From positions 77,660-141,659 of the forward strand of contig JANRLI010000016.1 of assembly GCA_033762625.1 (NCBI GenBank): a DNA stretch of 64,000 nt. Direction: 5' to 3'. How positions within the stretch are numbered: position 1 is the stretch's first letter; every line of letters begins with the position of its first letter. Positions 25,394-43,585 of the stretch are shown here, in pieces. The notes beneath the pieces are model-generated. The model was given only the letters and a program-made list of their open reading frames with translations, was not told the origin of the DNA and ran no database searches. Origin of the DNA: Alphaproteobacteria bacterium (GTDB lineage: Bacteria; Pseudomonadota; Alphaproteobacteria; UBA9219; RGZA01). The translations under genes were made by a program, and so were the position numbers.

Positions 25394-25410
25394 GCTATAA
25401 TCGCAGAGAT

Positions 25411-25472
25411 AAAACCCGCCCGAACGGTTGTGCCCACATTTTTTTAATTGGGCACAGCGTAGTCGGTCTAAA
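25411..25472. repeat. Palindromic intergenic repeat, copy 1 (upstream of tpsB)
   Basis: aaaacccgcccgaacggttgtgcccacatttttttaattgggcacagcgtagtcggtctaaa with internal hairpin GTGCCCA-loop-TGGGCAC; near-identical to the 34754-34874 copy. Confidence 0.55.
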
Positions 25473-25751
25473 TAAAACTGTGGACAATATAGGGTGTCAA
25501 CCTGCGACCTGTTGATAAAGCGAACGGCCACGCACGACCTATAACGCATTTCTTCATCGCATCACAAAACCAAGCTGTTGTTTTCATTGAGTGCAAACGG
25601 GGTTCGTCGCACCAACCATGCTTTTATACACCGCGCATGTGCGTCAATCGCAGCAAGCACGCGCGGCCGTCAGATTATTTGAGTTCAATGGCTTTTTTGC
25701 TAGGCTCGCCTGCTGCCATTTCATGCCTGCACCTTATTTTATTACCGTTGA

Positions 25752-27437
25752 ATGTTCTTCAGGAATTCTGCCTTTTTGCTGCTATGTGCACTTTGCCTGT
25801 GCATGCCGCTTGGCGCGGTGGCACAGGTAGCGATACCCAATTCCGCCGATATCAGCCGCATCAAACCCGAAGAACATATTCCGTCACTATCCCACACGAA
25901 TGACGGTAAAATATCCATCCCGTCCGGCAAGGGCGCAGCGCCAGTCCCGGATGAAGCAAAACGCGTGAAGCTCACTCTGAAATCCTTGAAGATTATCGGT
26001 GCAACCGTTTATGCTCCAGCCGAACTTGATGCGCTGTATGCAACCAACATCGGTAAGGACATCACCTTGGATGCGGTTTATAAAACCGCATCCGCCATTA
26101 CCGAAAAATACCGTAATGACGGCTATTTCCTGAGCAGGGCATTCGTTCCAGAACAGGAAATCGAAGATGGCAACGTCACCATTCGCGTCGTCGAAGGTTA
26201 TGTCGGCGCAGTGGACGGCACCAGCACATTTGCGGATTCAGCAATCGTCAATGATGCGATTGAACGCCTAACGCATAAACGCCCGTTGACCTCTGATGAT
26301 ATCGAGCGATTTTTATTATTGCTGGATGATCTGCCGGGGTATGAATTTGGCGGTACATTATCACCGCTTGAAGATGCGCCCGATGGCGCGGTCAAGCTGA
26401 CGCTCACCGTCAAAGAGACCCAAGGCACCGGTTCCATCAATTTCGATAATCACTCATCGCGCTTTCTGGGGCCGAATGAAATTTCGGCATCCTATTCCAA
26501 AAGTTTTATCCCGTTTCAGCAAACAACCATCTCTGCATTGTCGGATGTTGACCGCACCAAATTGCGTTATGGCACGATTGATCATTCCATCGCGCTTAGC
26601 ACGGATATGAAGCTGAATATTGCCGGCGGCGTTACGCAAGCCATGCCCGGTTACTCGCTGGAAAGCTCGGAAATCGACAGTATTTCAATCTTTGCCAGCA
26701 TCGCGCTCAACTATCAATTGCTGCGCACTCGTCAGCAAAATCTCGGCCTAAAGGCATGCGTTGATGGACGCGATGTCAAAAGCGATATCCTTGGCGCGCC
26801 GCTGACACGAGATTATATCCGCGCATTCCGCGCCAGCGCAAATTACGATCTCGCCGATGGCTGGCATGGCTTCAATAACGCAACCATCACACTCGCCCAC
26901 GGTGTGGACTGGCTGGGCTCCAGCCATCCCAATGATCTCAACCTATCGCGCATCGGCGCATTGCCGGATTTCACCAAGGGCGAATTATCACTCTCGCGCC
27001 TGCAAAGCATTACGCAAGACTGGTCGGTTCTTATCGCTGGCGAAGGTCAATGGGCATCGGGCGTTTTATATTCATCTGAACAATTCGGATATGGCGGACA
27101 AAATTTTGGCCGTGCGTATGATTCATCCGACATCACGGGCGATCACGGCATCAAAGGTTCTGTTGAAATGCGTTACGGCGGATGGACAGGAGAACGCATG
27201 GTCAATCTGCAGCCTTATGTGTTTTACGATATCGGAAAAGTGTGGAACGAGGCGGTCGGCCAACCGTCGAATATTTCTGCATCGACAGCGGGCATTGGGC
27301 TTCGCTTCAATACGCAATGGAAACAATCGGGGAACCTGGGGGTTGCATTCCCGCTCGACCGTGATATTACCACCCCCATTTACGGGTCGGGCGAGCGCGG
27401 CCCGCGCTTCATCCTGCAAATAAGCCAACAATTCTAA
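25752..27437 (+). CDS. Two-partner secretion outer membrane transporter TpsB (ShlB/FhaC/HecB family)
   Basis: Signal peptide; POTRA-like region with YFLSRAFVPEQEIEDGNVTIRVVEGYVG; 561 aa; C-terminal barrel ending FILQISQQF (terminal Phe). Confidence 0.8.
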   Translation: MFFRNSAFLLLCALCLCMPLGAVAQVAIPNSADISRIKPEEHIPSLSHTNDGKISIPSGKGAAPVPDEAKRVKLTLKSLKIIGATVYAPAELDALYATNIGKDITLDAVYKTASAITEKYRNDGYFLSRAFVPEQEIEDGNVTIRVVEGYVGAVDGTSTFADSAIVNDAIERLTHKRPLTSDDIERFLLLLDDLPGYEFGGTLSPLEDAPDGAVKLTLTVKETQGTGSINFDNHSSRFLGPNEISASYSKSFIPFQQTTISALSDVDRTKLRYGTIDHSIALSTDMKLNIAGGVTQAMPGYSLESSEIDSISIFASIALNYQLLRTRQQNLGLKACVDGRDVKSDILGAPLTRDYIRAFRASANYDLADGWHGFNNATITLAHGVDWLGSSHPNDLNLSRIGALPDFTKGELSLSRLQSITQDWSVLIAGEGQWASGVLYSSEQFGYGGQNFGRAYDSSDITGDHGIKGSVEMRYGGWTGERMVNLQPYVFYDIGKVWNEAVGQPSNISASTAGIGLRFNTQWKQSGNLGVAFPLDRDITTPIYGSGERGPRFILQISQQF

Positions 27438-27604
27438 AGCCTTATATAAAGGCGACGGTGCACGTGAATAGTGTTACCAAAAATTAATCAATAAAAATAA
27501 CGACTTATACATTTTTTAATGGCTTTTGACGCAAATTATACGCGTATAGCCCGTATATAGAGTATGCGCTTTAAAAAAAAGGCGCATACGAAACACGTTC
27601 AGCG

Positions 27605-30600
27605 ATGACCGATTTTCGTTTGAGATCACTGCCAAAAACTGAATTCGCCCGTATGTTGCGCACGGGCAAAAAGGCATTGTGCTGTCTCGTGTCGTTTGCA
27701 TTCTTTGCCATGCAGACAATGCCATTGCTCGCCAATCCGGTTAATGGAACGGTAAGTGCGGGCAGCGCCAATATCAGCTCTGCTGGAAATACCCTCACAG
27801 TCACCCAAACAACCGATAAAGCCGTCATCGACTGGCGCGGCTTTGATATCGCGAAGGGTGAAACCACGCGCTTTGTTCAGCCATCCTCTTCGTCCATGAC
27901 ATTGAACCGCGTGAGCAGTAACGCGCCGAGCTTCATCGACGGCAATCTGACTGCGAATGGTAATCTGGTTGTTGTAAATCCGAATGGCGTGTGGTTCGGA
28001 CCCAATGCACGCGTCGATGTCAACGGCCTCATCGCCAGTACGGCGAATATCAGCAATAACGCGTTCATGAACAATACCGGCATCCTAAATTTCGATGAAG
28101 CCGGAAACCCTGATGCAGCGATTATAAATGATGGCCTTATCACCGCCAAAGATGCAGGACTTGTCGGGCTTGTTGCACCAAATGTCATCAATCGTGGCAT
28201 CATTTATGCTCGCCTTGGCCGTGTAGCACTCGCATCCGGCGATACGGCGACGGTGGATTTATACGGCGATGATCTGATCAAGGTTGCGGTTTCGGACAAA
28301 GTCAAATCACAACTCGTCAGCAATAGCGGTGTGATTGCTGCCCCTGGCGGAACCATCGCGCTGACCGCCGCCGCCGGAAAAGACATCGTCAACAGTTTGA
28401 TAACCGTGCATGGCGAACTGGCTGCGCCCAGCATCCGCGAACATAATGGCAAGATTATCATCGCAGCCCAAGGCAGCAACAAGACAACCAAACAAGGCCA
28501 TAGCACTGTCCTCGTCTCTGGCATTCTCGACGCATCGGGCCGCAATGCAAGTGAACATGGCGGCAGCATTCAGGTAACGGGTGATAATATCGGCTTATTG
28601 GCTGGCACCCGCATCGATGCATCGGGCAGCGATGGATTATCCGGAACAACACTTGGCAAAGCAATTTCTTCCATGCGCATCGGTGCAGCCGGCGGGGATA
28701 TCCGCATCGGCGGTGATTATCTGGGCGGCGGTCATACACCCACCGCGCTGAACCTTTACGTCGATAAGGATGTGTTGGTGTTGAATGATGCCCTGAATAG
28801 CGGCGATGCAGGCCGAACCATCTTCTGGTCGGATGGCACGACACAATTCTACGGCAATGTCTATGCGCGTGCACTGGGCGGCAAAGGCATTCATGCCACC
28901 ACATGGAATGCGATTGCGGGCGGCAATGCCGGTGATGGCGGCTTCATCGAAACATCCGGCCACGGACATCTGGACGCTGGCGGCTATGTTGATCTCACCA
29001 GCAGCAACGGTTCACGGGGCACCTATTTCCTTGACCCGACCAACATCACCATCTACGGGAACTTCGCACCGAACTACGCAACGGTCATCACAGGTTCAAC
29101 CGGCGCGCTTTCCGCCAGCTTGAAACTATGGGTGGATTCAAGCGATACCGCCAATGTCAATCTCACCTACAGCGCACTGACCACAGCAGGCGCGAATAGC
29201 TGTGCAAGTTCATGCCTAACCGCGAACGGCACATCCGGCGCAACAACCATCACCACAAGCGCTAACATCGCTTCTACACTTCAGGTCGGCCAACGCCTTC
29301 GCCTTGGCGCTGCCGGCAGCGTAACAGCCGCCTCCACGCTTGGCACAGACACCTACACCATCAGCTCCATTTCCGGCACCACTATCACATTCTCCAGCGC
29401 ACTCACCGCGACATACACAAACGCAGTGGTCTATGCCGGCTACGTATCACAAATGACTGATAAAAGCGGTCTGGGTAATAACGCGACGCAGGCAACGGCC
29501 GCGAACATGCCGCTATGGATAAGCAATGGGTTTAATTCAATCGGGACCACGAATTACTCTGGCAGCTCCTACCTCAATCTCCCGAACCTCATGTCAGGCG
29601 CAACAGCGGGCAGCGGTTTTTTCAGCGCGATCAATGCGGCCGATCCGCCGGGTACCGGAAGCCAGACAGGTATGCCTTTTGGTAATTGGGGCACCGGCAT
29701 TCAATCCCACTATGTCTGGACGGACGGCGTTGTATACGATTCATTCGGCTCCAATCTCAGAAAGACCGCTGCAAATCCTGTTCCGGCATTGACGACAGCC
29801 AATGTGTATGGGGTCATCTCTGCGGCGAATGACTGGCGCGACTATATCAACGGACAAGCTCTTTTCTCGACCACGACGAACACCGTCGCATGGGGCACAA
29901 CGCCGACGATTGGTAATAATGTTGGCTCGTATTTCTTTACAGGAAAACTTGGTGATGTTTTTGCCTATAACAAAGCTGTATCCGCGAACGAACAGACGCT
30001 GTTGAACCAGTACATATCCGGAAAATGGAATGTTGCACTTCTTCCTCCGGGTAGTGGCGCAACTGAAGTTGCGCAGGCAACCGCAAGCGTGCAGAAAGGC
30101 GATGCGGTTGATGGGTACAGCGTCTTTACAACCCGTTATTTACAACGCTTATCGCAATCCGCAAATATCAGCTTGCAATCGTCGAATAACATCACCCTTG
30201 ATTTTCAGGGCGATAATATGAATTTCACGACGGCAGGTCGCACCCTCACCCTGACAGCAGGAAATCAGATTACAACAGCATCTACCGGAACCATCACGAC
30301 CAATGCGGGGGCGATCACCTTGAATGCCACCAACGGCATTTTAATCAATAATGCCTTCACGATTAATTCTGCAAATGGCGCGGTCAATATCAATAACGCT
30401 GTTACGCTTGCCGCGAATTTGAGTGTGACATCCGGTTCAGGCACACTAACCTTCGCCAGCACCATCGATGGCGCAGGTGGTTTGACCACAAGCTCTACCA
30501 ATGGTGCAACAATCTTCAACGGGGCTGTTGGTGGCACAACGCCGATTACCAGCTATACCGGAACAGGCCGCGACCTTACCATCAATCAAAACATCACCAG

Positions 30601-33600
30601 TAGCGGCAATATCAGTGCTGCATTCACGCGTGACATCACCCTTGCCGCAACGAAAACGATTACAACGGGCGCCGCAGGCGCGCTCACACTCACCGCTGCC
30701 GGTAACAGCGTAAACGGCACAGGAAATCTGAACCTCAATGGTAATCTCAGTGTTGGCACCGGCGCTTTAACACTATTATCTGGTGTGAATGGCACGCGGC
30801 CAAGCTGGACCGCGACGACAAGCAACCTTGTCCGTCAAGGCGCAACTTTTGGCACAGTGTCCATTCAGGGTTTTCTCGATACCACGATCTCGCGCGACAT
30901 TAACAGCAGCGGCAACATCACACTTCTTTCAAATCGCGATCTGACCTTAAGCCCCGCAAACACCCTGACAACCAGCGCCACAGGCGCCCTCAGCATGACC
31001 GCTGCAAACGGTTCAACAGCTGGCACGGGCAACCTTACGATCAATGGCAACCTTAGCGTGGGTACAGGCGCGCTCACTTTCCTGTCGGGAATTAATGGCA
31101 CACGGCCAAGCTTAACGGTCACAACCACAAATCTTGTGCGTCAAGGCGCGACATTCGGCGCGGTCAGTATCCAAGGATTCAATGCCTTCACACTCAATCG
31201 CATTTTGAATTCAACGTCATCTGTGCTCTTTGCCAATAACACAACAACGACACTACAGAACAACGTAACAAGCACGGCATCAACCATCACATTCAGCAAT
31301 CCGGTCATTATCGCGGAAGCTACGAGCATCAATGTTTCCACAACCAATCAGGCAATCACGTTTGGCAGCACCATCACCGATACGGCAGGCGGCGTTACCG
31401 AAACCCTTACGGTCAATCCTGGCACATCTAGCGCGACCTTCACTGGCGCCGTGAACGGTGTGGCCATAACGGTCAGCGCAGGGTCTGCAACGCTTTCATC
31501 GGCATGGGGCGCAACCTCGGCGCTGGGCGCAACCAGCATCACCACCACAAGCTCTCTCACATTACCTGCGATTACCGCTGCATCGCTTAGCGTCAACACA
31601 TCTGGCGCAAGTTCAAGTTTGCAAGTCAGCGGCAGTCTTTCAACAACGCTCAGCGGCGGCGCGCTGAGCCTGACCAGCGGCGCATTCATCGTCAGCAATG
31701 CTGCATCCACAATTTCCAGCACCAATGGTGCCATCACGTTCAATGCAGGAAGTTCGCTGTATCTTGCAACCGCATCGGCCGCGATCAACAGCACGGGCGG
31801 CGCGATTACCTTTACGGGTACCAATGGCATAATTGTTGGCGCGGACACTTCGGTGAATAGTGGCGGCGGCAATATTAATTTTAATCAGGCTGTCACCATG
31901 GCAGCTCCGCTCAGTCTGACGCTTGGAACCGGCACACTCACTTTTGCGAGCACGATTGACGGATCCGCACCATCCTATAGCACCTTCAGCGTTCTGGCAG
32001 TTGGCGCGGGCGGTGGTGGTGGTGGCATGGATGCTGCAACACGAGGCTCTGGCGGCGGCAGCGGCGCTGCAGTTGATGCGGTCGTGAATGTGTCGGCTGG
32101 CGCTGTTTATACCGTTGCGGTTGGCGGCGGCGGCGCTGGTGGTACAAATTCGCTTTCATCAGCTGCAGGTGGTGCAGGCGGTGTGAATGGCGGCGGCTCT
32201 GGCGGTGCAGCGGGTGCATCGGGTACCAGTGGTGGCGGTGGCGGCGGTGGCGGATTCTCAGGAATTTATATCGGCGGAACCTATTACGTGGTCGCTGGCG
32301 GTGGCGCGGGCGGTGGCGGCGGTAATGAAGGCTTTGCAAAAAGTGTTGGCGGCGCAGGTGGCGGAACGCAAACCTCCAATACTGGCACGACATCGGGCGG
32401 CGTTGGACAAAGCTATTCGGGTGATGGTGGCGGTGGTGGCGGTGGCGGTGGTGGCTTCTTGGGCGGCGCCGGACAAACCGGTATTGCCGTATCGACACCG
32501 GCAGCCTTCAGCAATGGCGGCAGCAATTATTCGAATCCCGGCAATGTCTCCGCCACGATCACGCTGGGTAATGCGGGTTCCGCCAACGCGGTAAGCACCG
32601 GCGGCGGCGCAGCGACCATCGCAGCAGGCAGAGCGACATTCTATAGCTATGGCAACAATCTAGGGGTGGGTGGTACTGCCGTAGGTAGCGGAACGGCAGG
32701 CACAAATGGTGCTGTCATCATCCGTTACACAGGCACGACTGCGCAAGCATTGGTGGTGGGCGGAACCATCACAACATCGGGCGGCGATGTCATCGTGACC
32801 TATGCCAACACCGGTACAAATAGTTCATTCAGTCCGATCGCCGGATGTTCGGGAAATTGTAATCTGACCATCAATGCCGGCACCGTGAATTTCGGCGGGA
32901 ATGTGGGAAGCACACAGGCGCTCGATGCCGTATCTGTAACAACCACCAACGGCTTGACACTACCAAACATCACCGCCTCCAGCGTGATAGCCCGCACAAC
33001 AGGTGTCGCAGCAGATCTAACCATTGCCGCAGCGAAAGTCATCACCGCAAGCGGCAGCGGCGACGCAATCAAATTGGCGGCGGGCAGGAACTTCATCAAT
33101 AATGCGGGATCAGGTGCGCTTGTCACTCCATCCGGCAGATGGCTGGTATATTCAACCAATCCTTCAAATGATACGATTGGCGGCCTCAGCAATTCATTCC
33201 GCCGCTTCAGCTGCACCTATGGCGGTTCATGCCCATCTTTCCCTGGAACAGGTAACGGTCTTCTCTATACCACCACACCTCTACTGACGATCACCCCGAA
33301 TGCGCTCAGCAGTATCGTCTATGGCGCAGCAGCACCGAATTTGAGCGGCTATGCGTACACAGCAACGGGATATCTGGGTTCGGATTCCAGCGCCGATACG
33401 TTGACAGGATCATTGACCGGCAGCAGCAGTTATATAGCGGGTTCGAATATCGGCACCTATAATATCAACTACGGTCTTGGCTCGCTTTCATCGGTATTGG
33501 GTTATGGTTTTAGCTATGCGAATAACGCAAGCGCATTCACCGTCACACCGCGTCCTATCACCATTACCGCTGATGCAAAAACCAAAACCTATGGCGCAGC

Positions 33601-34735
33601 CGATCCAAGCCTGACCTATCAATTAACAAGCGGCTCGCTCTATGGCAGCGATAGCTTGACAGGTACGATTGCGCGCACGGCTGGTGAAAGCGTGGCAGGT
33701 GGTCCATACTCCATCAACCAGAACACACTTTCAGCTGGCAGCAATTATACGATTACCTATGTATCCGATAATCTGTCCATCACACCTGCAGCCCTGACAG
33801 TGACGGCTGCTGCAAAAACCAAGACCTATGGCGCGGCTGATCCTGCACTCACTTACACCTATTCCGGCTTGACGAACGGCGATACCGCATCGGTATTCAC
33901 TGGTGCATTATCGCGCGCGGCTGGTGAAACCGTGACAGGTGGACCATATGCCATCAACCAGAACACACTTACAGCTGGCAGCAATTATACGATCACCTAT
34001 ACCGGAAATAATCTATCCATCACACCGGCAACACTGAACATCACCGCCAATGCGCTGAGCAAAGTATATGGCACCAATGATCCAACACTTACCTACACCA
34101 TGTCGGGTGGAACGAATATCGCATTCACCGGGGCACTCTCCCGCGCGATCGGTGAAGCCGTGAACAGCTATGCTGTCTCCCAAGGCACGCTGAGTGCAGG
34201 CAACAACTATCACCTCAACTTTGTAAGCAGCACATTCGCTATCACACCGGCGACGCTCTATGTCGCGGCCAACAGCATCACCAAGGTTTACGGCGCGGTT
34301 GATCCTGCGCTCACCTATTCGGTATCGGGTCTGGCAAATGGCGACATCCTAGGCAACGTATTAACGGGTGCATTATCACGCGAAAGCGGAACCATGGTCG
34401 GCTCCTACCGTATCACCAAACATACACTAGCCTCTAACAGCGCTAACTATACGCTCGATTACACTTCTGCATTATTCAATATCATCAGCAATGACATCCC
34501 CGTAACCGTGACGCGCGTATCGCAAGACCCGACCTTGAACATGCCAACAGCCGTGCATACAACCGAGCCAAACAGTCCGACGACAACGACAACCCAAAGC
34601 CAAACCAGCACAACAAGCAATAACCCGAATGTCTCTGCGTCTGAAGTACCAACAGATTCACAAGGCGCATGGCTGCGCATTTCACCTGCACTGGCTGCTG
34701 CACTTGGCGAAGCACCCGTTTTCATCAAATACTAA
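27605..34735 (+). CDS. Two-partner secretion exoprotein TpsA (filamentous-hemagglutinin-like, 2376 aa) with N-terminal TPS domain, Gly-rich segment and C-terminal MBG-type repeats
   Basis: TPS domain NPVNGTVSAGSANISSAGNTLTVTQTTDKAVIDWRGFDIAKGETTRFVQPSSSSMTLNRVSS...GNLVVVNPNGVWFGPNARVDVNGLIASTANI; Gly block GAGGGGGGMDAATRGSGGGSGAA...GGGGGGGGF; >=5 repeats of ...KTYGAADP.LTY...GALSR.AGE.V.GGPY.I.QNTL.AGSNYTITY...NLSITPA.L. Confidence 0.85.
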   Translation: MTDFRLRSLPKTEFARMLRTGKKALCCLVSFAFFAMQTMPLLANPVNGTVSAGSANISSAGNTLTVTQTTDKAVIDWRGFDIAKGETTRFVQPSSSSMTLNRVSSNAPSFIDGNLTANGNLVVVNPNGVWFGPNARVDVNGLIASTANISNNAFMNNTGILNFDEAGNPDAAIINDGLITAKDAGLVGLVAPNVINRGIIYARLGRVALASGDTATVDLYGDDLIKVAVSDKVKSQLVSNSGVIAAPGGTIALTAAAGKDIVNSLITVHGELAAPSIREHNGKIIIAAQGSNKTTKQGHSTVLVSGILDASGRNASEHGGSIQVTGDNIGLLAGTRIDASGSDGLSGTTLGKAISSMRIGAAGGDIRIGGDYLGGGHTPTALNLYVDKDVLVLNDALNSGDAGRTIFWSDGTTQFYGNVYARALGGKGIHATTWNAIAGGNAGDGGFIETSGHGHLDAGGYVDLTSSNGSRGTYFLDPTNITIYGNFAPNYATVITGSTGALSASLKLWVDSSDTANVNLTYSALTTAGANSCASSCLTANGTSGATTITTSANIASTLQVGQRLRLGAAGSVTAASTLGTDTYTISSISGTTITFSSALTATYTNAVVYAGYVSQMTDKSGLGNNATQATAANMPLWISNGFNSIGTTNYSGSSYLNLPNLMSGATAGSGFFSAINAADPPGTGSQTGMPFGNWGTGIQSHYVWTDGVVYDSFGSNLRKTAANPVPALTTANVYGVISAANDWRDYINGQALFSTTTNTVAWGTTPTIGNNVGSYFFTGKLGDVFAYNKAVSANEQTLLNQYISGKWNVALLPPGSGATEVAQATASVQKGDAVDGYSVFTTRYLQRLSQSANISLQSSNNITLDFQGDNMNFTTAGRTLTLTAGNQITTASTGTITTNAGAITLNATNGILINNAFTINSANGAVNINNAVTLAANLSVTSGSGTLTFASTIDGAGGLTTSSTNGATIFNGAVGGTTPITSYTGTGRDLTINQNITSSGNISAAFTRDITLAATKTITTGAAGALTLTAAGNSVNGTGNLNLNGNLSVGTGALTLLSGVNGTRPSWTATTSNLVRQGATFGTVSIQGFLDTTISRDINSSGNITLLSNRDLTLSPANTLTTSATGALSMTAANGSTAGTGNLTINGNLSVGTGALTFLSGINGTRPSLTVTTTNLVRQGATFGAVSIQGFNAFTLNRILNSTSSVLFANNTTTTLQNNVTSTASTITFSNPVIIAEATSINVSTTNQAITFGSTITDTAGGVTETLTVNPGTSSATFTGAVNGVAITVSAGSATLSSAWGATSALGATSITTTSSLTLPAITAASLSVNTSGASSSLQVSGSLSTTLSGGALSLTSGAFIVSNAASTISSTNGAITFNAGSSLYLATASAAINSTGGAITFTGTNGIIVGADTSVNSGGGNINFNQAVTMAAPLSLTLGTGTLTFASTIDGSAPSYSTFSVLAVGAGGGGGGMDAATRGSGGGSGAAVDAVVNVSAGAVYTVAVGGGGAGGTNSLSSAAGGAGGVNGGGSGGAAGASGTSGGGGGGGGFSGIYIGGTYYVVAGGGAGGGGGNEGFAKSVGGAGGGTQTSNTGTTSGGVGQSYSGDGGGGGGGGGGFLGGAGQTGIAVSTPAAFSNGGSNYSNPGNVSATITLGNAGSANAVSTGGGAATIAAGRATFYSYGNNLGVGGTAVGSGTAGTNGAVIIRYTGTTAQALVVGGTITTSGGDVIVTYANTGTNSSFSPIAGCSGNCNLTINAGTVNFGGNVGSTQALDAVSVTTTNGLTLPNITASSVIARTTGVAADLTIAAAKVITASGSGDAIKLAAGRNFINNAGSGALVTPSGRWLVYSTNPSNDTIGGLSNSFRRFSCTYGGSCPSFPGTGNGLLYTTTPLLTITPNALSSIVYGAAAPNLSGYAYTATGYLGSDSSADTLTGSLTGSSSYIAGSNIGTYNINYGLGSLSSVLGYGFSYANNASAFTVTPRPITITADAKTKTYGAADPSLTYQLTSGSLYGSDSLTGTIARTAGESVAGGPYSINQNTLSAGSNYTITYVSDNLSITPAALTVTAAAKTKTYGAADPALTYTYSGLTNGDTASVFTGALSRAAGETVTGGPYAINQNTLTAGSNYTITYTGNNLSITPATLNITANALSKVYGTNDPTLTYTMSGGTNIAFTGALSRAIGEAVNSYAVSQGTLSAGNNYHLNFVSSTFAITPATLYVAANSITKVYGAVDPALTYSVSGLANGDILGNVLTGALSRESGTMVGSYRITKHTLASNSANYTLDYTSALFNIISNDIPVTVTRVSQDPTLNMPTAVHTTEPNSPTTTTTQSQTSTTSNNPNVSASEVPTDSQGAWLRISPALAAALGEAPVFIKY

Positions 34736-34753
34736 ATTTTAGTGGTCGGTCTT

Positions 34754-34890
34754 AAAACCCGCCCGAACGGTTGCGCCACCCGCGAAGCGGCAAGCGCAGA
34801 GTGAATGGCGGAAAATGGTGCAGTCACGGTTGTGACCACATTTTTAAATTGGGCACAGAGTAGTCAGTCTAAAAGCAGGGCGGGTTGCGG
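34754..34890. repeat. Palindromic intergenic repeat, copy 2 (downstream of tpsA) with ~60 bp internal insertion and terminal inverted arms AACCCGCCC/GGGCGGGTT
   Basis: aaaacccgcccgaacggttgcgcc[...60 nt...]cacatttttaaattgggcacagagtagtcagtctaaaagcagggcgggttgcgg; flanking short direct repeats gtRgtcRgtcttaaa. Confidence 0.55.
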
Positions 34891-34916
34891 GAACCGCAGA
34901 CGCATCGCGTCGATAT

Positions 34917-35070
34917 AATGGTGGGCGATGGTGGATTCGAACCCCGTTTGCGAAGCAAACAAAACAATGCCGTAGGTTCGATGAAGATTTGAGAATGGTG
35001 GGCGATGGTGGATTCGAACCCCGTTTGCGAAGCAAACAAAACAATGCTGTAGGTTCGATGAAGATTTGAG
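34917..35070. repeat. Two tandem 77 bp units each containing a copy of the tRNA-Lys 3' end (T-arm+acceptor+CCA); att-site scar-like
   Basis: Unit aatggtgggcgatggtggattcgaaccccgtttgcgaagcaaacaaaacaatgcYgtaggttcgatgaagatttgag x2 (1 mismatch), third copy of the first 27 nt is the genuine tRNA 3' end at 35071. Confidence 0.7.
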
Positions 35071-35072
35071 AA

Positions 35073-35148
35073 TGGTGGGCGATGTAGGATTCGAACCTAC
35101 GACCTATTGATTAAGAGTCAACTGCTCTACCAACTGAGCTAATCGCCC
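35073..35148 (-). tRNA. tRNA-Lys (anticodon CTT), 76 nt, CCA encoded
   Basis: GGGCGATTAGCTCAGTTGGTAGAGCAGTTGACTCTTAATCAATAGGTCGTAGGTTCGAATCCTACATCGCCCACCA; 7 bp acceptor stem perfect, D-arm GCTC/GAGC, anticodon stem GTTGA/TCAAT, loop CTCTTAA, T-arm GTAGG-TTCGAAT-CCTAC. Confidence 0.85.
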
Positions 35149-35282
35149 GCACCATGGGTAAAACATGAAGCCAGGTTTCAGCGCCATGTTTTTCGAAGGC
35201 AGTGATTTAGCAAGGTACAGTATGAATGTCTAGCCATCATTCTGGGCCACAACAGATGCTAAAACCGCGTTTTTATTATGGG

Positions 35283-37523
35283 TTAATTGCTGCCACTACC
35301 TGGATGCGGGTCTGCGGGCTTTGCGACATGCCCATTACCGTTCCCGTTTGTTTTCGGACGCGTTGCCGATCCCCATATACTAGTTGGTTCGCCATCATTG
35401 GCTGCACGCTGGGTCAACCCCGCCATCCAGCCTTGGCTTCGGGCGCGCATCAATTCAGCATGGGCCTCGGGAGCTTTTCTCGCCAAGTCCGACAAGCTAC
35501 GCACTTTATATTTTTCTGCCTGTACGCGGGCAGCTTCAAGCCAACGGCGCTGCGCCCCTGAGAACATGGTTACATCAAGACTATCAAGGTATTCATAAGG
35601 ATGTGTGGTGCGCGGCGTGCACATCATACGCACCGCATCGGTCGTGGGTCTGCCCATGCCCAAATTACCGCTGATGAGGGTTGCAAACACTGCTTCCTCT
35701 TCACTTACGGTTACGCCTTCAACCGATTTCACAGCGCTGCGCGCTACTGCCAATAATGGCTTCTTGGCGAGATCGCGGCGGGCTTCGGCTTTACCGATAT
35801 GCGCTTCAACAAAGGCTTCGATTTTATCAGCCGGAACTTTTGCGCGGCGAAGGAATGCGCGTGCTTTGCTTTTATCGGCCGGGTCGCTGAGCAAATGACG
35901 GCGCACCGCAAGGTAGGAGCGCTCTGGAACCACATCTTTTAATGCGCTTTGCGCATAGGCTTCAGGCAACAAGCCCGACAGATAGTTATAACAAATATGC
36001 TTTAGTAATCGGGGGTCCACTTCCTGCGGCATTTGTCCGCGGAAATAGGCCGTTGGTCGTTTATCCGGCATATCCCGCAAGGCATCATAATAATCGCGGA
36101 TATCATCCAGCAATCCGGTCAATAAGCCGTGCTGTGAAAAACGCTTGGTCAGATCAAGTCCCATGGATTTCATGCGCTTGAAGAAGCCACGTTCCAACAT
36201 CGCTTCGATAACCACTTTCGAACAAAGGGTCAGATAGAGTGCGCCAGGCGTGACCGAGCTGGCATTACCAAAATCAATCGACAGCCGACGGTTCACATCA
36301 AGAAATGCGCGCGCCGCCATCATCATTGCTGCACTTTCGGTTTCGGCCAGCCCCTTAGCCATGAAACTTTGGGCAAGCGGGTTAATTGCATACACCATCG
36401 CCGATGGCACCGCGCCGCCCGGCAAGCGCGCATAGCGCAATTCTTCGCCAGTAAAAATATTGCTATCCGCGCGGTAGGCACGCTCCAGCTTGGCAATTAC
36501 ACCTTCCATACGATCAAGAATTTCCAGCTGCGCTTCGCTTGGCATGGCGCCATAGCCGAATTTCGCAGCCTGCACCATCAATGCCTTGGTATCGGCAAAT
36601 CCGCGTCCACCTGGAATACTATCCAAAGTTAAACGGCTGATCGCAGCTTCACGGCCTTCATTATGCTTGATATGGCTAACAGCCGCAGCAGCAGCCATGG
36701 TATTCGCGCCCAGCGCGTCATCGGTCTGGTGAGTGTGAATGCCAATTTCCAAAACGCGGTTATATTTTTCTTTGAACTGTTCGGCGATCATCAACAACAC
36801 GTTGGTCACCGAATAGGCGTTGCCGTCCTTCACTTCGCCGGGCTTGTCATTCAATTGGCCGATCATATCCTTGATACTGATACGGCTGATCACATCGGGG
36901 TCAACGGCTTGTGCGATCAATGCGCGTTCGAACAGATGGCGATAATGTTCTGAGGTAAAACTGTCATCTGCCGTATAGCAAATAGCTAGCTCGCAGCTGA
37001 CATTATATCCCTTAGCGCGCATCGCGGTTAAAATCCGCAAGGTGGCGGCGTATTCTTCGGGGTTATTTTGTGCTTCGAATAAACGGAACACCACTGGGCG
37101 GCCCTTAACATCACCCTTATTCTGTGCGCCGGCTTTTTGCGCCATGGTTTCCAGAACATAGGTCAGATCATCTTCGTGCAAAGCTTCCAAACCCACGGCA
37201 AACGGGCCGCGCACCAACAAACGCATTTCCACATCGGGTGGTAATTTCTTATCCATATGCACAATCGATTCCAACGGTGGACGGCCAAGCATCACATCGC
37301 GTTGTGGCTGTGCGCCGCTTGGACCCTCGATCGCAGTGATTTTTGCAGGGCCGGCTTGGTTGAATTGACCCACTAAATCATAAAACAAATCCAGCTTTTC
37401 ATGGTTTAGCGGGATGCGATTTCCATAGGATGACTGGCTCCAGTCACGAATGACGAGCACATGGCCAAGCGAAAACGCACTTTCATCGGAAACGGACACA
37501 GCAGAAGAAACAGTATCAACCAT
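35283..37523 (-). CDS. Pyruvate-carboxylase/oxaloacetate-decarboxylase-type carboxyltransferase (HMGL-like TIM barrel + PYC_OADA conserved region) domain protein, no biotin-carrier domain, 746 aa with long unique N- and C-terminal extensions
   Basis: VVFRLFEAQNNPEEYAATLRILTAMRAKGYNVSCELAICYT (FRxFDxxND-like), SIKDMIGQL (IKDMAG-like), IGIHTHQTDDALGANTMAAAAAV (HxHNxxGxAxAxxLAAxxAG-like), RLPGGAVPS (QIPGGMLSN-like); no AMKM biotin motif. Confidence 0.5.
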   Translation of the reverse strand: MVDTVSSAVSVSDESAFSLGHVLVIRDWSQSSYGNRIPLNHEKLDLFYDLVGQFNQAGPAKITAIEGPSGAQPQRDVMLGRPPLESIVHMDKKLPPDVEMRLLVRGPFAVGLEALHEDDLTYVLETMAQKAGAQNKGDVKGRPVVFRLFEAQNNPEEYAATLRILTAMRAKGYNVSCELAICYTADDSFTSEHYRHLFERALIAQAVDPDVISRISIKDMIGQLNDKPGEVKDGNAYSVTNVLLMIAEQFKEKYNRVLEIGIHTHQTDDALGANTMAAAAAVSHIKHNEGREAAISRLTLDSIPGGRGFADTKALMVQAAKFGYGAMPSEAQLEILDRMEGVIAKLERAYRADSNIFTGEELRYARLPGGAVPSAMVYAINPLAQSFMAKGLAETESAAMMMAARAFLDVNRRLSIDFGNASSVTPGALYLTLCSKVVIEAMLERGFFKRMKSMGLDLTKRFSQHGLLTGLLDDIRDYYDALRDMPDKRPTAYFRGQMPQEVDPRLLKHICYNYLSGLLPEAYAQSALKDVVPERSYLAVRRHLLSDPADKSKARAFLRRAKVPADKIEAFVEAHIGKAEARRDLAKKPLLAVARSAVKSVEGVTVSEEEAVFATLISGNLGMGRPTTDAVRMMCTPRTTHPYEYLDSLDVTMFSGAQRRWLEAARVQAEKYKVRSLSDLARKAPEAHAELMRARSQGWMAGLTQRAANDGEPTSIWGSATRPKTNGNGNGHVAKPADPHPGSGSN

Positions 37524-37732
37524 AATGAAATTTCCTAAATGAATAGATCAGTTTGAAATACGTCGTGAACCTTATGGAACAAAGCTAATCATAAATGAGG
37601 AGGGCAAAAAAGCGTTTTTTTATCCATAAGGGTATCAGTATGCCCTTTAAGCCTAAACAACACCTTTATGTGCGTAAAATTGCGCCAATACCCTGATATT
37701 ACGGGCATTTCTTAACGCCCCTTAATACAATA

Positions 37733-40700
37733 TTATGCTGCCGCCAATGCAGGCGCCCAATGCTCGCGCTGCGCACGTTTTTCAACGCGGCGCACACCCA
37801 TGGAGTGGTCGGATGCGCCATCATAAATCTGATGTCCTGAAAGCCCGCGCGCAATACCCGCCAAGCGGAACATATATTCCGCATCCTTGCTATACGGCTG
37901 GTCCGGCGTTTCCATCGCCTTGATATACAGCGTTTCCCGCGCGATGCGCGAAAAGTCCTGCATGCGTGCGCCCATGCCCATTTGTTCATCGATATGCTGC
38001 ATGGTGATCTTGCGGATAAGGAAAGATAACTTGCTGCATGTTTCGGGGTTTGGGTTTGCTAATTCATCCTTGCTGATGAAGCCTTCGGGAATTTCAACGC
38101 CCTTGGCCTGCAAATACGGAACGGCCGCGCCCACAATATCCAACGGCAAACTCTTGGTGAAGTAATCCATCGTCTCAATGCTTACCTTTGGCGCGCCGCG
38201 CTCCTCGCGTTGCTTCAATAAATCGACAGTGAACTGCACATTGCTGATCGCCACACCAAACGCGGGGAAATCGGCAACCGCCGCGCGGTAAATAGGCGAT
38301 ACTTTATACAATGTTTGCAGGCCTTTTGGCGTTAAGGCATCGTTCTCGAAGATCACCACATCATCGCCAAATGCCTGCTGCGCATCACGCAATAATTCAG
38401 CGCGCAGATCAGGGCGCGTGCCATATAGCTGGTTGATGTATTTCGCCATATTGCGCATTGGCAATACGGCAAAGCCAACCCCCATATCCAATCCCGTCGT
38501 CGTAAAGCCAATCGTGCGCATATCGCCGGGCGCAACCGGTTTGGTGTTCGGATAAACGGCTTTGATACCGCCGGTTTCACTACGGCCTTGGCGTGAACCG
38601 GGATTATTCAACGTATGGTTCACATCATAAAAGCCAACTTCGCCCATGGCTTTGCCCAATTGGTTTTGTGCGCCATAATGGTTTTCCAGATAATCCTCAA
38701 TGGAATTGTCGATCGCATCATTCAATGCGTGTTCGCGCCCGTAATTCCACGATGCGCCATTGCCCTTCGATTTTTTAACCAGCTCCAACGCGTTGCGCGC
38801 CACCAATGTTGTCTGCAAACGCTGGAAGCGTTCGCATAGACGCAATTCGGGATTATCGCCGCCTTGATGCGTGTCCTCCATCCAATCGGCCAAGTTCGCG
38901 TCCTTGTTGAATGCGGTCGTGGAACGCACGCCGCCACGCGCCGTATCGCTTTTGCTGCCGCCATGGAACTGGCGCACATGATAGGCGGTTGGGCGTTCGT
39001 TCATTTGTTTTAAAATACCCGAAACATCCTTGGCTTGAATACGCCCATCGCGCACATAAGCTTGCAGAATTTTGGGGAATAATTCCTTCATACCCGGCAC
39101 CAGCAAATTGGCCTGGTCATAAATATTGCTGCGTGCGCGGGGCAAACCGCCACGGCGCATGCAATCGCTGTGCGCGAACTGGATTTTCAGCAGATTCACG
39201 ATGCGGGTTGGGTCACCTTGCGCCATTTCCCACATATGGTCACGCCATGCGCGCTGCTTGAACACATCTTCGAAAATGGGCACCGCCTGTGTCAGCGTTT
39301 CAATATCTTCGAGCAACGGTACAATAACCATATTCACGCCGGTCATTTTGGAAACCAACAATGTCTCCATCATTTGCAATGCGCCCTGGCATTCTGCCAA
39401 TACGTGGTCGGTGATCAGCCCATCCTGCATCCCCCCTACTTCAAAGCGTTGCAGCGTGTGCAGCGTGATGACATCTGCGTCGTGTTTGCTGTAATTGCGC
39501 ATCGTATCTGCGGTCTTACCTTCGCTCTTCAACCGCGCAAAGAAATCGGTTTTCAGTTTACCCAGTACATCACCGCCCTTGCCCAGCGCACTATTCAGCA
39601 AGGCAAGTTTTTGCGCATCTTCCAAACCGGCATAATCCTCGATTTTGTAACCGAACAGTGTTTCATTGCCATTCAACAAGGTGGCCATCACCGGCTCATA
39701 CACTTCTGCGGTTTCGCGCAAATGGAAATTCAAAAGCCCAAGGCCTAGCATTTTCGATTTACGGATAAGCGATAGCGCGGCTTTTTGCTGTGCGCCTTGG
39801 GTTGTGTGATACGCGGCAGTAAGCGATTGTTGGAACTTCGCATTCACTTCGTTGATATTGCCGCCATCAAATGCATAGACATTTTTAATTGCAGTCAACG
39901 CGCCTTCATATTCTTCGCGTGATAAGGGCAGATCAACGCCATTACCTGCACCTGCAATGCGCTTTAACAATGGCTCGATGATATCGGCCATTTCTGCGTT
40001 TTTAGCGGCCAGATAATCATTCCATGTACCGCCATCTGGCGCGCCATCCACCACCAAACCACTGTCATTTAATTGCTGCGCATACAATTCCGAAGCCTTA
40101 TGACGGAACAGCGCCGTGGCAAGCAATAAATGCTCGGAACGAATGTTGTTGTTGCCATCCTTATCGCCCATCACCCATGTGGCGAAACGCAAACTAAGCT
40201 CGGTCAGCAGGCGTTCCTGCGCGTCATATTCATAGGGCAGTATTTTCGCATCCGATAAACGCTGCATCGCGTTATCGTTCTTGCGATAGATCTCGTCGAT
40301 GTTACGGGTGAAGTCATCGGTAATATCCGCAAGCGACGCCATAATCTCCCCAAGCGGCGTCAAATTCGCCAGATTGCCGTCGTCATCCTTGAACGTCAGA
40401 TCGGCTTCCTTCATGCGCTGCAACGCTTCGAACGCTTCGCCGCGTCCGTTCATGTAATCAAGCAGCAAATGGGTTTCACCCGCATTCACGCGGCGGGTCA
40501 TTTCGCGCTGCGCCAAGGCGAACACACGGCGCGCATCGGTGAATGCGCTGGTCGTGTACCGTGTGGGGTGCGATGTGGAAACGGATGTGATCACGGGCGT
40601 CGCCAGTGCCGCGCGCATTTCCGCGCCGTTGGTGATCTCGCCAATACGGATGATTTCGCTTAGATAATGCTCCAATCCTTCAGGGATGATGGTTGAAAAA

Positions 40701-41152
40701 TCGGCCGTGCCGCGTCCATGCTGCACAATAAAATCAAATGCGCGGTCACGTTCTGGGCGGGCATCTTCCACCACATTGTCATGGCTGTGGGGCGCGGCGA
40801 CTTTGATAACCTGCCCGATGAATACCACATGTTCCATCACGCGGCGCAGGCGCGCGGGTTCGTTCTTGTATTTCTGGAATACACTGTCGAACACACCGTG
40901 GCGGCGTGCTTCCACGGCTTTTTCCATGCCGTAGAGTGTATTCAGAAAATTCGCATCGGCGAATTCATGCGCGCTATAGACACTGCTGTCGATGACCGGT
41001 GTGATCAATTCATCCGCGATCACTTCAAGATCAGGGATAAGATCGGCATCTTCTTCTGGAACCAGATGCTGCAAGATAGGGGCAATGAATGCCTTGGCGG
41101 TGCGCGCTTGGTAATAGGAGCGCAGATCTTCATTACTAATTCCGTCGAGCAC
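37733..41152 (-). CDS. Highly divergent phosphoenolpyruvate carboxylase-like protein (1139 aa)
   Basis: VSTSHPTRYTT (cf. PEPC VLTAHPTE), WVMGDKDGNNN (cf. WMGGDRDGNP), MRNYSKHDADV (cf. MIGYSDSGKDAG), FHGGSKSDTARGG (cf. FHGRGGSVGRGG) in the canonical order; lacks C-terminal QNTG. Confidence 0.45.
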   Translation of the reverse strand: MLDGISNEDLRSYYQARTAKAFIAPILQHLVPEEDADLIPDLEVIADELITPVIDSSVYSAHEFADANFLNTLYGMEKAVEARRHGVFDSVFQKYKNEPARLRRVMEHVVFIGQVIKVAAPHSHDNVVEDARPERDRAFDFIVQHGRGTADFSTIIPEGLEHYLSEIIRIGEITNGAEMRAALATPVITSVSTSHPTRYTTSAFTDARRVFALAQREMTRRVNAGETHLLLDYMNGRGEAFEALQRMKEADLTFKDDDGNLANLTPLGEIMASLADITDDFTRNIDEIYRKNDNAMQRLSDAKILPYEYDAQERLLTELSLRFATWVMGDKDGNNNIRSEHLLLATALFRHKASELYAQQLNDSGLVVDGAPDGGTWNDYLAAKNAEMADIIEPLLKRIAGAGNGVDLPLSREEYEGALTAIKNVYAFDGGNINEVNAKFQQSLTAAYHTTQGAQQKAALSLIRKSKMLGLGLLNFHLRETAEVYEPVMATLLNGNETLFGYKIEDYAGLEDAQKLALLNSALGKGGDVLGKLKTDFFARLKSEGKTADTMRNYSKHDADVITLHTLQRFEVGGMQDGLITDHVLAECQGALQMMETLLVSKMTGVNMVIVPLLEDIETLTQAVPIFEDVFKQRAWRDHMWEMAQGDPTRIVNLLKIQFAHSDCMRRGGLPRARSNIYDQANLLVPGMKELFPKILQAYVRDGRIQAKDVSGILKQMNERPTAYHVRQFHGGSKSDTARGGVRSTTAFNKDANLADWMEDTHQGGDNPELRLCERFQRLQTTLVARNALELVKKSKGNGASWNYGREHALNDAIDNSIEDYLENHYGAQNQLGKAMGEVGFYDVNHTLNNPGSRQGRSETGGIKAVYPNTKPVAPGDMRTIGFTTTGLDMGVGFAVLPMRNMAKYINQLYGTRPDLRAELLRDAQQAFGDDVVIFENDALTPKGLQTLYKVSPIYRAAVADFPAFGVAISNVQFTVDLLKQREERGAPKVSIETMDYFTKSLPLDIVGAAVPYLQAKGVEIPEGFISKDELANPNPETCSKLSFLIRKITMQHIDEQMGMGARMQDFSRIARETLYIKAMETPDQPYSKDAEYMFRLAGIARGLSGHQIYDGASDHSMGVRRVEKRAQREHWAPALAAA

Positions 41153-41321
41153 GATGGGTTATTCCTTTAAAAAATCAGACACTGAATTTGGCGTTAAAAA
41201 ATGCTTCCACTTCAAACCGGCCAACCTTATTGCCCGGAAAGCTTAACGGCTAAACCTTGCAACTAAAGAGCGTTATTTTGCAGTTGCAAAATATGGGGAA
41301 TTCGCCCAAAAACTTGACTAA

Positions 41322-41789
41322 ATGAGTATGAATTCAATTCGCCCCTCCATTGCCTTGTATCAGCCCGATATGCCGCAGAATTGCGGGGCAATCATGCGGC
41401 TTTGCGCATGTTTTGGCGTGCCGTTGCACCTTATCGAACCCTTTGGCTTTGTATGGGATGACGCAAAGGTTAAACGCGTGGCGATGGATTATATTAATTT
41501 TGTGAACATGACCCGCCACAAGGATTGGGACGCGTTTCTTAACGCCAGCAAAGGCCAACGCTTGGTGCTCCTGACTACAAAATCCTCCGCGCCCTATACC
41601 GAGTTTAAATTCGAACCATCGGACATCCTGCTTCTGGGCCGCGAAAGCGCAGGTGTGCCTGATGACGTGCATGCCATCGCCGATGCCCGCGTGGTTATCC
41701 CGTTGCAAAAAGGCCTGCGTTCTTTAAATGTAGGCATGTCCGCCGCGATTGTACTTAGCGAAGCCTTACGACAAACGAGAAATATGTAA
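41322..41789 (+). CDS. trmL: tRNA (cytidine34/uridine34-2'-O)-methyltransferase TrmL (SPOUT/SpoU family)
   Basis: 155 aa; PQNCGAIMRLCACFG...LLGRESAGVP...SLNVGMSAAIVLSEALRQ SPOUT knot motifs. Confidence 0.8.
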   Translation: MSMNSIRPSIALYQPDMPQNCGAIMRLCACFGVPLHLIEPFGFVWDDAKVKRVAMDYINFVNMTRHKDWDAFLNASKGQRLVLLTTKSSAPYTEFKFEPSDILLLGRESAGVPDDVHAIADARVVIPLQKGLRSLNVGMSAAIVLSEALRQTRNM

Positions 41790-42730
41790 TGGAAACGTCC
41801 CGCATCCAACCCATCACCGCTGCTGTGCATACCTTCCCAACACAGGAACAAAAAGAACGCGCCGCCGCATGGTTTAAAGAATTGCGTGATAGGATCTGCG
41901 CTGAATTAGAAAAGATTGAAGCAGAATATGCTTCTTCCGCCCGAGCGGTTGTTCCATCGCCAGATGGAACAGAGCGAATGGCGAATGAACCAGCGCGCTT
42001 TATTAAAAAATCATGGGAACGTGAAACGCCTGATAATCTTCCGGGCGGCGGCGGGGTTATGGGTCAATTACGTGGCCGCGTCTTTGAAAAGGGCGGCGTG
42101 AATATTTCCACAACCTATGGGCATTTCTCGCCGGAATTCCGCAAACAAATTCCAGGCGCCGCCGAAACCGGCGCATTCTGGGCCAGTGGCATCAGCCTTG
42201 TGCTGCATCCCACCAACCCGCATGTGCCGCCCGTGCATATGAATACCCGCCACATCGTCACCACACGCGGCTGGTTTGGCGGCGGCTCCGATTTAAATCC
42301 GAACATCCCGAATGATGCGGATACCACGGCGTTCCATGCACGGCTGAAACACGCATGCGATGCACATTCACCCGATTATTATGAAAAATATAAAGCATGG
42401 GCGGATGAATATTTCTTCAACAAACACCGCAACGAACCGCGCGGCGTGGGCGGCATTTTCTACGATTATCACGATAGCGGCAATTGGGATGCGGATTTCA
42501 AATTCACGCAGGATGTAGGGTTGGCGTTTCTGGATATTTATCCAAAACTGGTGCGCCGCCACATGTATGATGCGTTTACACCCGAAGATAAACAGCAGCA
42601 AAGCATCCGGCGCGGAAGGTATGTGGAATTTAATCTGGTTTATGACCGCGGCACAAAATTTGGCCTGATGACCGGCGGTAACACCGAAGCCATTTTGATG
42701 AGCCTGCCGCCCGACGCGAAGTGGATTTAA
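41789..42730 (+). CDS. hemF: Oxygen-dependent coproporphyrinogen III oxidase HemF
   Basis: GGGVMGQLRGRVFEKGGVN..., RGVGGIFYDYH, full-length 313 aa; start overlaps trmL stop (TAATGG). Confidence 0.9.
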   Translation: METSRIQPITAAVHTFPTQEQKERAAAWFKELRDRICAELEKIEAEYASSARAVVPSPDGTERMANEPARFIKKSWERETPDNLPGGGGVMGQLRGRVFEKGGVNISTTYGHFSPEFRKQIPGAAETGAFWASGISLVLHPTNPHVPPVHMNTRHIVTTRGWFGGGSDLNPNIPNDADTTAFHARLKHACDAHSPDYYEKYKAWADEYFFNKHRNEPRGVGGIFYDYHDSGNWDADFKFTQDVGLAFLDIYPKLVRRHMYDAFTPEDKQQQSIRRGRYVEFNLVYDRGTKFGLMTGGNTEAILMSLPPDAKWI

Positions 42731-43585
42731 TTACTTAAAACTTTTTTCGTATAAATCCGTGCGGCGATCGCGGAAAAAACCCCAATCCGCGCGGTAGCTT
42801 TCAATCAACTTCAAATCGAATTCCTGAACCAGAACACCGGTTTCGGTCTTGCCGAATTCCTTCACCAGAGTTCCTGCGTTATCAGCAATGAATGAATGCC
42901 CGTAAAAGTGTTGTTTTACGCCATCATTATCTTCAAGGCCAATGCGGTTGGATGCAATGACCGGTACGGCATTGCTCACTGCGTGGCCCTGCATCGCGCG
43001 TTGCCATGGCGCATGCGTATCCAATGCTGCATCATAGGGTTCTGAACCGATGGCGGTTGGATAGAATAATAATTCTGCGCCCTGCACCATCATCGCGCGT
43101 GCGCATTCGGGGTACCATTGGTCCCAGCAAATGCCAACGCCAATGGTAGCGAATTTTGTTTTCCATGCTTTAAATCCGGTATCGCCCGGGCGGAAATAAT
43201 ATTTCTCCATATATCCGGGGCCATCGGGGATATGGCTTTTGCGGTAAACACCCAAAATGCTGCCATCCGCATCGGCGATTGCCACGCTGTTGTAATAACG
43301 CGGGCCATCTTTTTCGAAGAATGAAATAGGAATAACGACTTTTAATTCTGCTGCCAATTTTGCCAGCGCGACGACGCATGGATGTTCGTTTGCGGCGAAT
43401 GCCGTTTCAAACCATTTGGGATTTTGCTGCGTGCAGAAATAAATTCCCTGAAACAGCTCAGATGGCAAAATAATCTGCGCGCCTTGTTTGGCAGCTTCAC
43501 GTACCAGTTTTTCAGTGGCCGCGATATTGGCGCGCATATCATTGCCATACTGCGTTTGCAATGCTGCGACAGTTACCTTGCTCAT
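42731..43585 (-). CDS. aguB: N-carbamoylputrescine amidohydrolase (CN-hydrolase/nitrilase superfamily) AguB
   Basis: E-K-C triad context: PSELF, YRKSHIP, GVGICWDQWYPE; start set at MSKVTVAALQ to give 2 nt overlap with aguA stop. Confidence 0.8.
   Translation of the reverse strand: MSKVTVAALQTQYGNDMRANIAATEKLVREAAKQGAQIILPSELFQGIYFCTQQNPKWFETAFAANEHPCVVALAKLAAELKVVIPISFFEKDGPRYYNSVAIADADGSILGVYRKSHIPDGPGYMEKYYFRPGDTGFKAWKTKFATIGVGICWDQWYPECARAMMVQGAELLFYPTAIGSEPYDAALDTHAPWQRAMQGHAVSNAVPVIASNRIGLEDNDGVKQHFYGHSFIADNAGTLVKEFGKTETGVLVQEFDLKLIESYRADWGFFRDRRTDLYEKSFK

Follow-up and report, generated by a model that had tools for sequence, protein, structure and literature searches.

The window, a 64,000-nt stretch of an alphaproteobacterial contig, holds a single tRNA gene according to both ARAGORN and Rfam: a functional tRNA-Lys(CTT) of 76 nt at 35073-35148 on the minus strand (Rfam tRNA, 78.9 bits), with a paired T stem (GTAGG/CCTAC) and an encoded CCA. 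Read on the minus strand, the 3' end of this gene is ...GTAGGTTCGAATCCTACATCGCCCACCA, and its sequence is identical in L001, L003, L004, and L011. Upstream of the tRNA lies a TAGACA-17 nt-TAAATC block (35204-35232, minus strand) that alignment shows to be kept in the window and in its two closest relatives, L001 and L004, with a similar box (TAGACA-17-TAAAAC) in a more distant relative, L013; its conservation makes it the putative tRNA-Lys promoter, and a promoter consensus scan did not flag it. Pfam and NCBIfam matches place a 746-aa gene, a 1139-aa PEPC-like gene, trmL, hemF, and a CN-hydrolase gene on the 5' side of the tRNA. On the 3' side, which for a minus-strand tRNA means coordinates below 35073, is a 2376-aa TpsA exoprotein gene convergent with the tRNA; before TpsA come TpsB, a sigma54 response regulator, two response regulators, a hybrid kinase, and a 1872-aa autotransporter. 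A terminator-like hairpin followed by a T run sits between the convergent TpsA gene and the tRNA (34823-34846, plus strand).

A tandem array begins inside the tRNA gene and runs on beyond it; TRF reports a period of 77 bp and 2.4 copies at 34917-35097 (97% matches, score 341). Following the minus strand away from the tRNA end (35073-35097), one meets a first 52-nt spacer (35021-35072, with A at its variable position), a first copy of the 25-mer GGTTCGAATCCACCATCGCCCACCA (34996-35020), a second 52-nt spacer (34944-34995, with G at the variable position), and a second copy of the 25-mer (34919-34943), which with a common TT occupies 34917-34943; past this point the array is over and unique sequence begins. 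The layout from the tRNA end is A-s-A'-s-A' + TT, where A is the tRNA end, s the spacer, and A' the fragment, such that the array starts within the tRNA and ends with a fragment copy. A search with the 25-mer returns the two fragments as exact matches and the tRNA end as a third site with 2 mismatches (23/25 identical; TA in the tRNA, AC in the fragments), and 0 of 100 shuffled sequences contained a match. The fragments are copies of the T-loop-to-CCA end of the tRNA that begin at the T-stem/T-loop and extend 2 nt beyond the CCA, and the CCACC variant that they carry would form a mismatched stem with GTAGG, the T-stem strand of the host. Spacer included, the full units at 34917-34993 and 34994-35070 match at 76/77 positions, and the spacers are 51/52 identical, the lone difference being the A/G. 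ARAGORN, Rfam, TRF, and this unit identity all bear out what an earlier note had read from the sequence, namely a tRNA-Lys(CTT) followed by two 77-bp tandem units that differ at one position and each include a near-copy of its own 3' end. A small correction concerns the order within the unit: counting from the tRNA end puts the 52-nt spacer first and the 25-mer after it.

The spacers have some structure of their own. Spacer copy 1 contains a GTTTGC-TTC-GCAAAC hairpin and also TCGAACCTAC, which repeats 10 nt of the tRNA T arm in inverted orientation; with G at the variable position, spacer copy 2 extends the inverted match to 11 nt (TCGAACCTACG / CGTAGGTTCGA). These inverted copies, at 34971-34981 and 35049-35058, match the variable-loop/T-stem/T-loop segment of the tRNA at 35091-35101 (CGTAGGTTCGA) perfectly over 10-11 nt, and as RNA the segment could pair with the tRNA T arm; by our own estimate, judged post hoc, the chance of such a copy is about 0.001-0.005. 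We considered whether the spacer might be a decayed 5' part of a tRNA, the 77-bp unit being about the length of one, and rejected this: the ungapped identity is only about 25%, and ARAGORN finds nothing. Neither the rest of the window nor any fetched locus contains the spacer sequence, and it was not found in viral contigs, JGI metagenomes, or phage and plasmid records.

Comparison with relatives dates the array and locates the variable side of the tRNA. The two closest relatives, an ENA contig of 774 kb (L001) and a Logan contig (L004), share about 78% amino acid identity with the window in the 746-aa protein, and both carry the identical tRNA-Lys at the equivalent place with no partial copy after it; since the array is absent at the same tRNA in both, it is, on this comparison, recent and lineage-specific. 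By tblastx, window positions 35071-46471 are collinear with L001 and L004 from the tRNA through the 746-aa gene, the PEPC-like gene, trmL, hemF, and beyond. Homology ends 2-5 nt beyond the CCA, at window 35068-35073, and the content 3' of the tRNA differs in each of the three genomes. The DNA 3' of the tRNA in L001 and L004 is AT-rich (0.40-0.45 GC vs 0.52-0.53 in the core). In L004 synteny returns at window position ~13221 after 2.4 kb of unrelated DNA (0.426 GC vs 0.534 in the core) that encodes an HTH + M78/CapP-like gene pair; in L001 it returns at the autotransporter (window ~18884) after 7.6 kb that open with a 4-kb stretch of 0.40-0.45 GC. The same tRNA is also present on L011, a JGI contig of a different lineage, where the flank is likewise AT-rich and carries a CapH/CapP-like pair and a Prok-E2/multiubiquitin gene. 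Judged across these genomes, the 3' flank of tRNA-Lys is a variability hotspot in the lineage.

Two of these flanks invite a comparison of their own. In L011 (271-2508) and L004 (12444-13432), in unrelated backgrounds, an Xre-HTH + M78 (CapH/CapP-like) regulator pair lies directly 3' of the identical tRNA-Lys; by gene content these loci are defense-island-type cargo. A single element shared by the two was considered and rejected, as their HTH and M78 proteins have no sequence similarity.

The earlier note had taken the block up to trmL (35283-41152, minus strand) for island cargo, with the PEPC-like pair in it. This block, which encodes the 746-aa protein (35283-37523) and its partner, the 1139-aa PEPC-like protein (37733-41152), is not cargo, because it lies 5' of the tRNA, is collinear in relatives, and has native codon usage. 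In the standard model, elements that target tRNA genes supply a new 3' end and sit 3' of the tRNA (PMC1635311); the block sits on the opposite side. It is collinear with trmL, hemF, and other genes in L001 and L004, both of which keep the 746-aa/1139-aa pair. The GC and codon-usage comparison proposed in that note makes the block not deviant but the most core-like in the window (GC 0.52, GC3 0.53-0.60, codon-usage distances 0.108 and 0.099), consistent with a conserved core. The note had also reasoned that tandem structure and downstream genes conserved in all relatives would mean an ancient fixed arrangement; the supposed cargo genes are indeed conserved, but the tandem structure is absent from the relatives and so is not ancient and fixed.

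Among 5.8 billion proteins, only 8 are homologues of the 746-aa protein, which belongs to no Pfam family and faintly resembles the carboxyltransferase region of pyruvate carboxylase (E 1e-6); the 1139-aa protein has a partial PEPcase match. In L013 the corresponding 735-aa gene directly adjoins trmL and the PEPC-like gene is missing between them. Farther homologues of the 746-aa protein lie among housekeeping genes, and synteny with the distant ones (L008, L009, and, by gene list, the P0006 contig) was sought and rejected, all being in other contexts. A look-up of trmL by exact protein sequence gave no match. The most deviant codon usage in the window belongs to a 291-aa ORF at 60193-61068 (GC3 0.38, no Pfam family), which lies inside the histidine operon with a hisC-hisB fusion on one side and hisH on the other.

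By the same comparisons, the side that varies is the TpsAB side and not the PEPC-like block. The lineage-specific segment on the true 3' side (18885-34916) encodes the hybrid histidine kinase, two response regulators, the sigma54 activator, TpsB, and TpsA; it is missing at the equivalent position in L001, and relative to L004 the difference reaches 13222. Its composition is native (0.515 GC), and Pfam and NCBIfam searches find no integrase in it. Elsewhere, in a genome whose TpsB is 65% identical, TpsBA lies beside fixNOQP-GHIS.

A direct repeat of ~65 bp flanks the TpsB-TpsA module (25408-25475 and 34752-34870). It reads AAAACCCGCCCGAACGGTTG...CCACATTTTT..AATTGGGCACAG.GTAGTC.GTCTAAA, terminator-like hairpin included; one copy lies right past the stop of the sigma54 regulator and the other, which has ~60 nt of additional internal sequence, right past the stop of TpsA. 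This placement suggests that the 9.4-kb TpsBA module inserted at, or duplicated, a terminator. Farther along, a 793-aa autotransporter gene (10377-12758) has low GC3 (0.40) and deviant codon usage, with no match in the syntenic stretch of L004, and may be a later acquisition than the TpsAB segment.

We then asked what the tRNA-end copies say about integration. A partial copy of the tRNA 3' end does lie downstream of the intact tRNA in the same orientation, and synteny among the relatives breaks off at the tRNA 3' end. Between the copies, however, there are only 52 nt, with no integrase or integrase remnant between or next to them; the repeats enclose this spacer rather than foreign DNA, and the variable DNA lies beyond the last copy. 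The earlier note's statement that no integrase remains in the window holds for every large ORF tested, none of which matches Phage_integrase, and no integrase was seen beside tRNA-Lys in L001, L004, or L011. With up to 7 mismatches allowed, a search for a distal att copy was negative both where the variable segment ends and in L001 and L004, and the array region shares no k-mers with the boundaries at 13.2 or 18.9 kb. A blastn search of phages and plasmids returned generic tRNA ends only.

Every array junction nonetheless fits a single crossover in CATCGCCCACCATT. The partners would be an attB consisting of the tRNA end + TTATATCG... and an attP of ...GCAAACGG + the 25-mer + TTCTCAAATC..., and the TA>AC change gives CCACC, which is a natural T-stem strand. 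On a viral contig, L007, a partial tRNA with a tyrosine integrase on one side and a CI-like repressor on the other contains the exact 25-mer, preceded by and paired with GGTGG. The 25-mer was rejected as a marker of tRNA-Lys elements, both of its variants also being present in phage tRNA-Tyr and tRNA-Val-type attP. If the fragment is an att relic, the ends of the integrase element would read CCATT|CTCAAATCTTCATCG... and ...GCTTCGCAAACGG|GGTTCGAATCCACC; searches with the exact junction patterns gave no match in viral contigs or JGI metagenomes.

As for transcription, a terminator scan finds no terminator-like site between tRNA-Lys and 34846; with either strand scanned, the hairpin at 34823-34846 is the only such site within ~250 nt past the array, and it is called on the plus (TpsA) strand only. 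Since this sole site lies past the array, the units are probably part of the tRNA-Lys primary transcript. The predicted fold of the unit is no better than that of shuffled sequences (z -1.3 to -1.8), ARAGORN sees no tRNA-like fold in the units, and Rfam has no match other than the tRNA in the array region at E<=10.

The reading given in the earlier note, in which two independent att scars record successive integrase-mediated integrations and excisions with the PEPC-like block as cargo, is in our judgment very unlikely. The fragments are truly copies of the tRNA 3' end, their span from the T-stem/T-loop to 2 nt past the CCA is like that of typical att cores, and synteny breaks at the tRNA 3' end; the two stacked scars and the cargo block are not supported. 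Independent events would not leave identical remnants, and these spacers are only 52 nt long and 51/52 identical. Site-specific excision, moreover, restores attB and leaves no scar, so that two copies would not record repeated integration and excision; taken with the spacer identity, this makes the second unit a local duplication of the first. The absence of an integrase and the 5' position, collinearity, and native codon usage of the supposed cargo weigh against the same reading, even though repeats of tRNA or tmRNA ends produced by serial integration are documented elsewhere (PMC3146451; bioRxiv 10.1101/2020.12.28.424599). A more mundane origin is the assembler: the source is a metagenome-assembled contig, the copy number of the array rests on short-read assembly, and the array is short enough to fall within one read pair. 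An assembler artefact is nevertheless unlikely to be the source of the array, and a true genome with one unit or none is very improbable: assemblers tend to collapse tandem repeats, not to create them, the copies here can be told apart (TA/AC, A/G), the longest exact internal repeat counted from the sequence is 54 bp, and both flanks of the array are collinear with the same relative, L004, leaving no sign of a chimeric join.

It is also conceivable that the array works within the tRNA transcript, whether as an rtT/RttR-like or 3'-ETS-like RNA, as a decoy for enzymes that act on tRNA ends, or as a protective spare attB. The likely inclusion of the units in the transcript and the 11-nt T-arm complement within the spacer are points in favor, as is the L013 relative, in whose 5'-side units a GUAA hairpin is preserved by stem changes that compensate one another; in E. 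coli the analogous repeat is annotated as giving the RttR sRNA, for which a passage of PMC3318445 cites Bosl & Kersten 1991. Such a function is unlikely, in that the array is found in one genome only and is missing from the closest relatives, its folding statistics are weak, no Rfam family matches, and the units have no strand to pair with the 3' strand of the acceptor; the folding, Rfam, and relatives arguments are those on which we would regard it as non-functional. A broader version would make tRNA-end arrays a recurrent, selected class of leaders and trailers, co-transcribed mimics of tRNA ends that might titrate processing enzymes or integrases. The cases behind it are the 3' array of the window, the L013 5' array with its covarying GUAA hairpins, the Aminicenantes tRNA-Val units described below, and E. 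coli rtT; we regard this version as decidedly unlikely.

The best explanation, to which we assign a probability of roughly 0.6, is that the array belongs to the tyrT type of tRNA-distal tandem repeat and is young, a single relic unit having undergone one local duplication, and that it is most likely non-functional. The relic unit would have consisted of a 52-nt orphan spacer and 25 nt copied from a tRNA 3' end and since diverged. Replication slippage or unequal crossing-over, acting on direct repeats of 25-27 bp, would then have turned A-s-A' into A-s-A'-s-A', the form expected as the outcome of unequal exchange or slippage between pre-existing A-s-A' repeats, and a later point change (A/G) would now separate the two spacers. 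The result would most likely be non-functional DNA in the tRNA 3' trailer, probably co-transcribed with the tRNA.

Where the first fragment came from can be read in two ways, at roughly even odds. An element may once have recombined with the tRNA inside CATCGCCCACCATT and later been lost by deletion down to 52 bp, leaving the fragment as an attR-type remnant, or the fragment may have arisen on the spot as a truncated duplication of the tRNA end and drifted afterward. The single-crossover fit in CATCGCCCACCATT, the natural T-stem strand CCACC, and the 25-mer on L007 support the att relic, and the failure to find a source element, an integrase, or a distal att copy counts against it. For a pure local duplication, the two adjacent changes that set the fragments apart from the tRNA end are a slight difficulty. 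The 10-11-nt inverted T-arm copy in the spacer is explained by neither origin.

For the interpretation of such loci, the array marks neither two integrations nor an island that holds the PEPC-like pair, and annotation pipelines in which every partial tRNA copy counts as the edge of an island would put an island in the wrong place here. It nevertheless resembles serially accreted islands in part. At the ssrA islands of Dehalococcoides, formed by tandem accretion at the tmRNA gene (PMC3146451, a passage of which cites Pavlovic 2004 for ICESt1/CIME accretion), and at the Prochlorococcus tycheposons with their stacked RNA-gene-end repeats (bioRxiv 10.1101/2020.12.28.424599), direct copies of an RNA-gene 3' end lie downstream of the gene, span the T arm to just past the CCA, and adjoin a variable flank, as they do here. 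Those systems hold different kb-scale islands, often with integrases, between successive att copies, whereas the window has two near-identical 52-nt spacers, and no integrase, foreign DNA between the copies, or distal copy was found in it.

Arrays closer in form to this one occur in other bacteria. A scan of 185,579 species genomes with the structural pattern gave one match, an Aminicenantes metagenome-assembled genome (L006; VGJG01000459.1, 1302-1557), where two 90-bp units come after a tRNA-Val(GAC), each closing with the last 31 nt of that tRNA. This is an independent case of a tRNA with two tandem units each ending in its own 3' end. It differs from the window in that its fragment is 31 nt long and identical to the tRNA and that its units carry an acceptor-like 5' strand and an anticodon-like arm; ARAGORN calls them 70-71-nt tRNA-Ser(gga), whereas the window units have no tRNA-like fold. 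The L006 units could be degenerate tRNA duplicates or tRNA-like elements.

The second case is a mirror image of the window at the same gene. In L013 (Logan DRR438482_213976, 3613-3854), a relative with 53% identity in the 746-aa protein, an array of 66 bp x 2.9 lies upstream of tRNA-Lys(CTT), between the promoter and the tRNA, on a contig that ends inside tRNA-Lys. Its unit begins with the first 18 nt of the tRNA (GGGCGATTAGCTCAGTTG), followed by a GUAA-tetraloop hairpin whose stems differ by compensating changes (GCAGCCC/GGGCTGC vs GCGGGC/GCCCGC). Homology between the window spacer and the L013 unit, suggested by a hairpin and an AAAACAA motif, was rejected as chance (local alignment vs shuffles, p = 0.06-0.3); since the two are not significantly similar, the arrays would have arisen independently. 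A 5' array is hard to ascribe to the usual integrases that regenerate a 3' end, which favors a local duplication process at such loci.

The closest counterpart is the distal repeat of E. coli tyrT, reportedly described by Egan and Landy in 1978 and by Rossi and colleagues in 1981. We verified in E. coli K-12 (NC_000913, downstream of tyrV) that tyrT/tyrV has an array of 178 bp x 3.1 (3.14) whose units start with the last 19 nt of tRNA-Tyr and which ends after a fourth fragment; rttR and tpr are annotated inside it. The window array shares its defining form: it starts inside the tRNA 3' end, consists of head-to-tail units of fragment + spacer with high identity in the trailer, and closes a non-integer number of copies with an extra fragment (2.4 copies ending in the 25-mer + TT vs 3.1 ending in the 19-mer). 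It differs in unit length (77 vs 178 bp), in its fragment (25 nt with 2 mismatches vs 19 nt identical), in having no small ORF like tpr, and in belonging to another tRNA and another phylum; neither by sequence nor by Rfam (E<=10) does it show homology to rtT/RttR. Tandem arrays of tRNA ends like that of E. coli tyrT are met again in distant phyla, and related uncultured alphaproteobacteria have them at either end of one and the same tRNA-Lys gene; they offer a basis for asking how arrays of this kind originate and whether some are expressed. By analogy with tyrT, the structure in the window appears to be a further example of a long-known type of repeat, one possibly seeded by an att relic.
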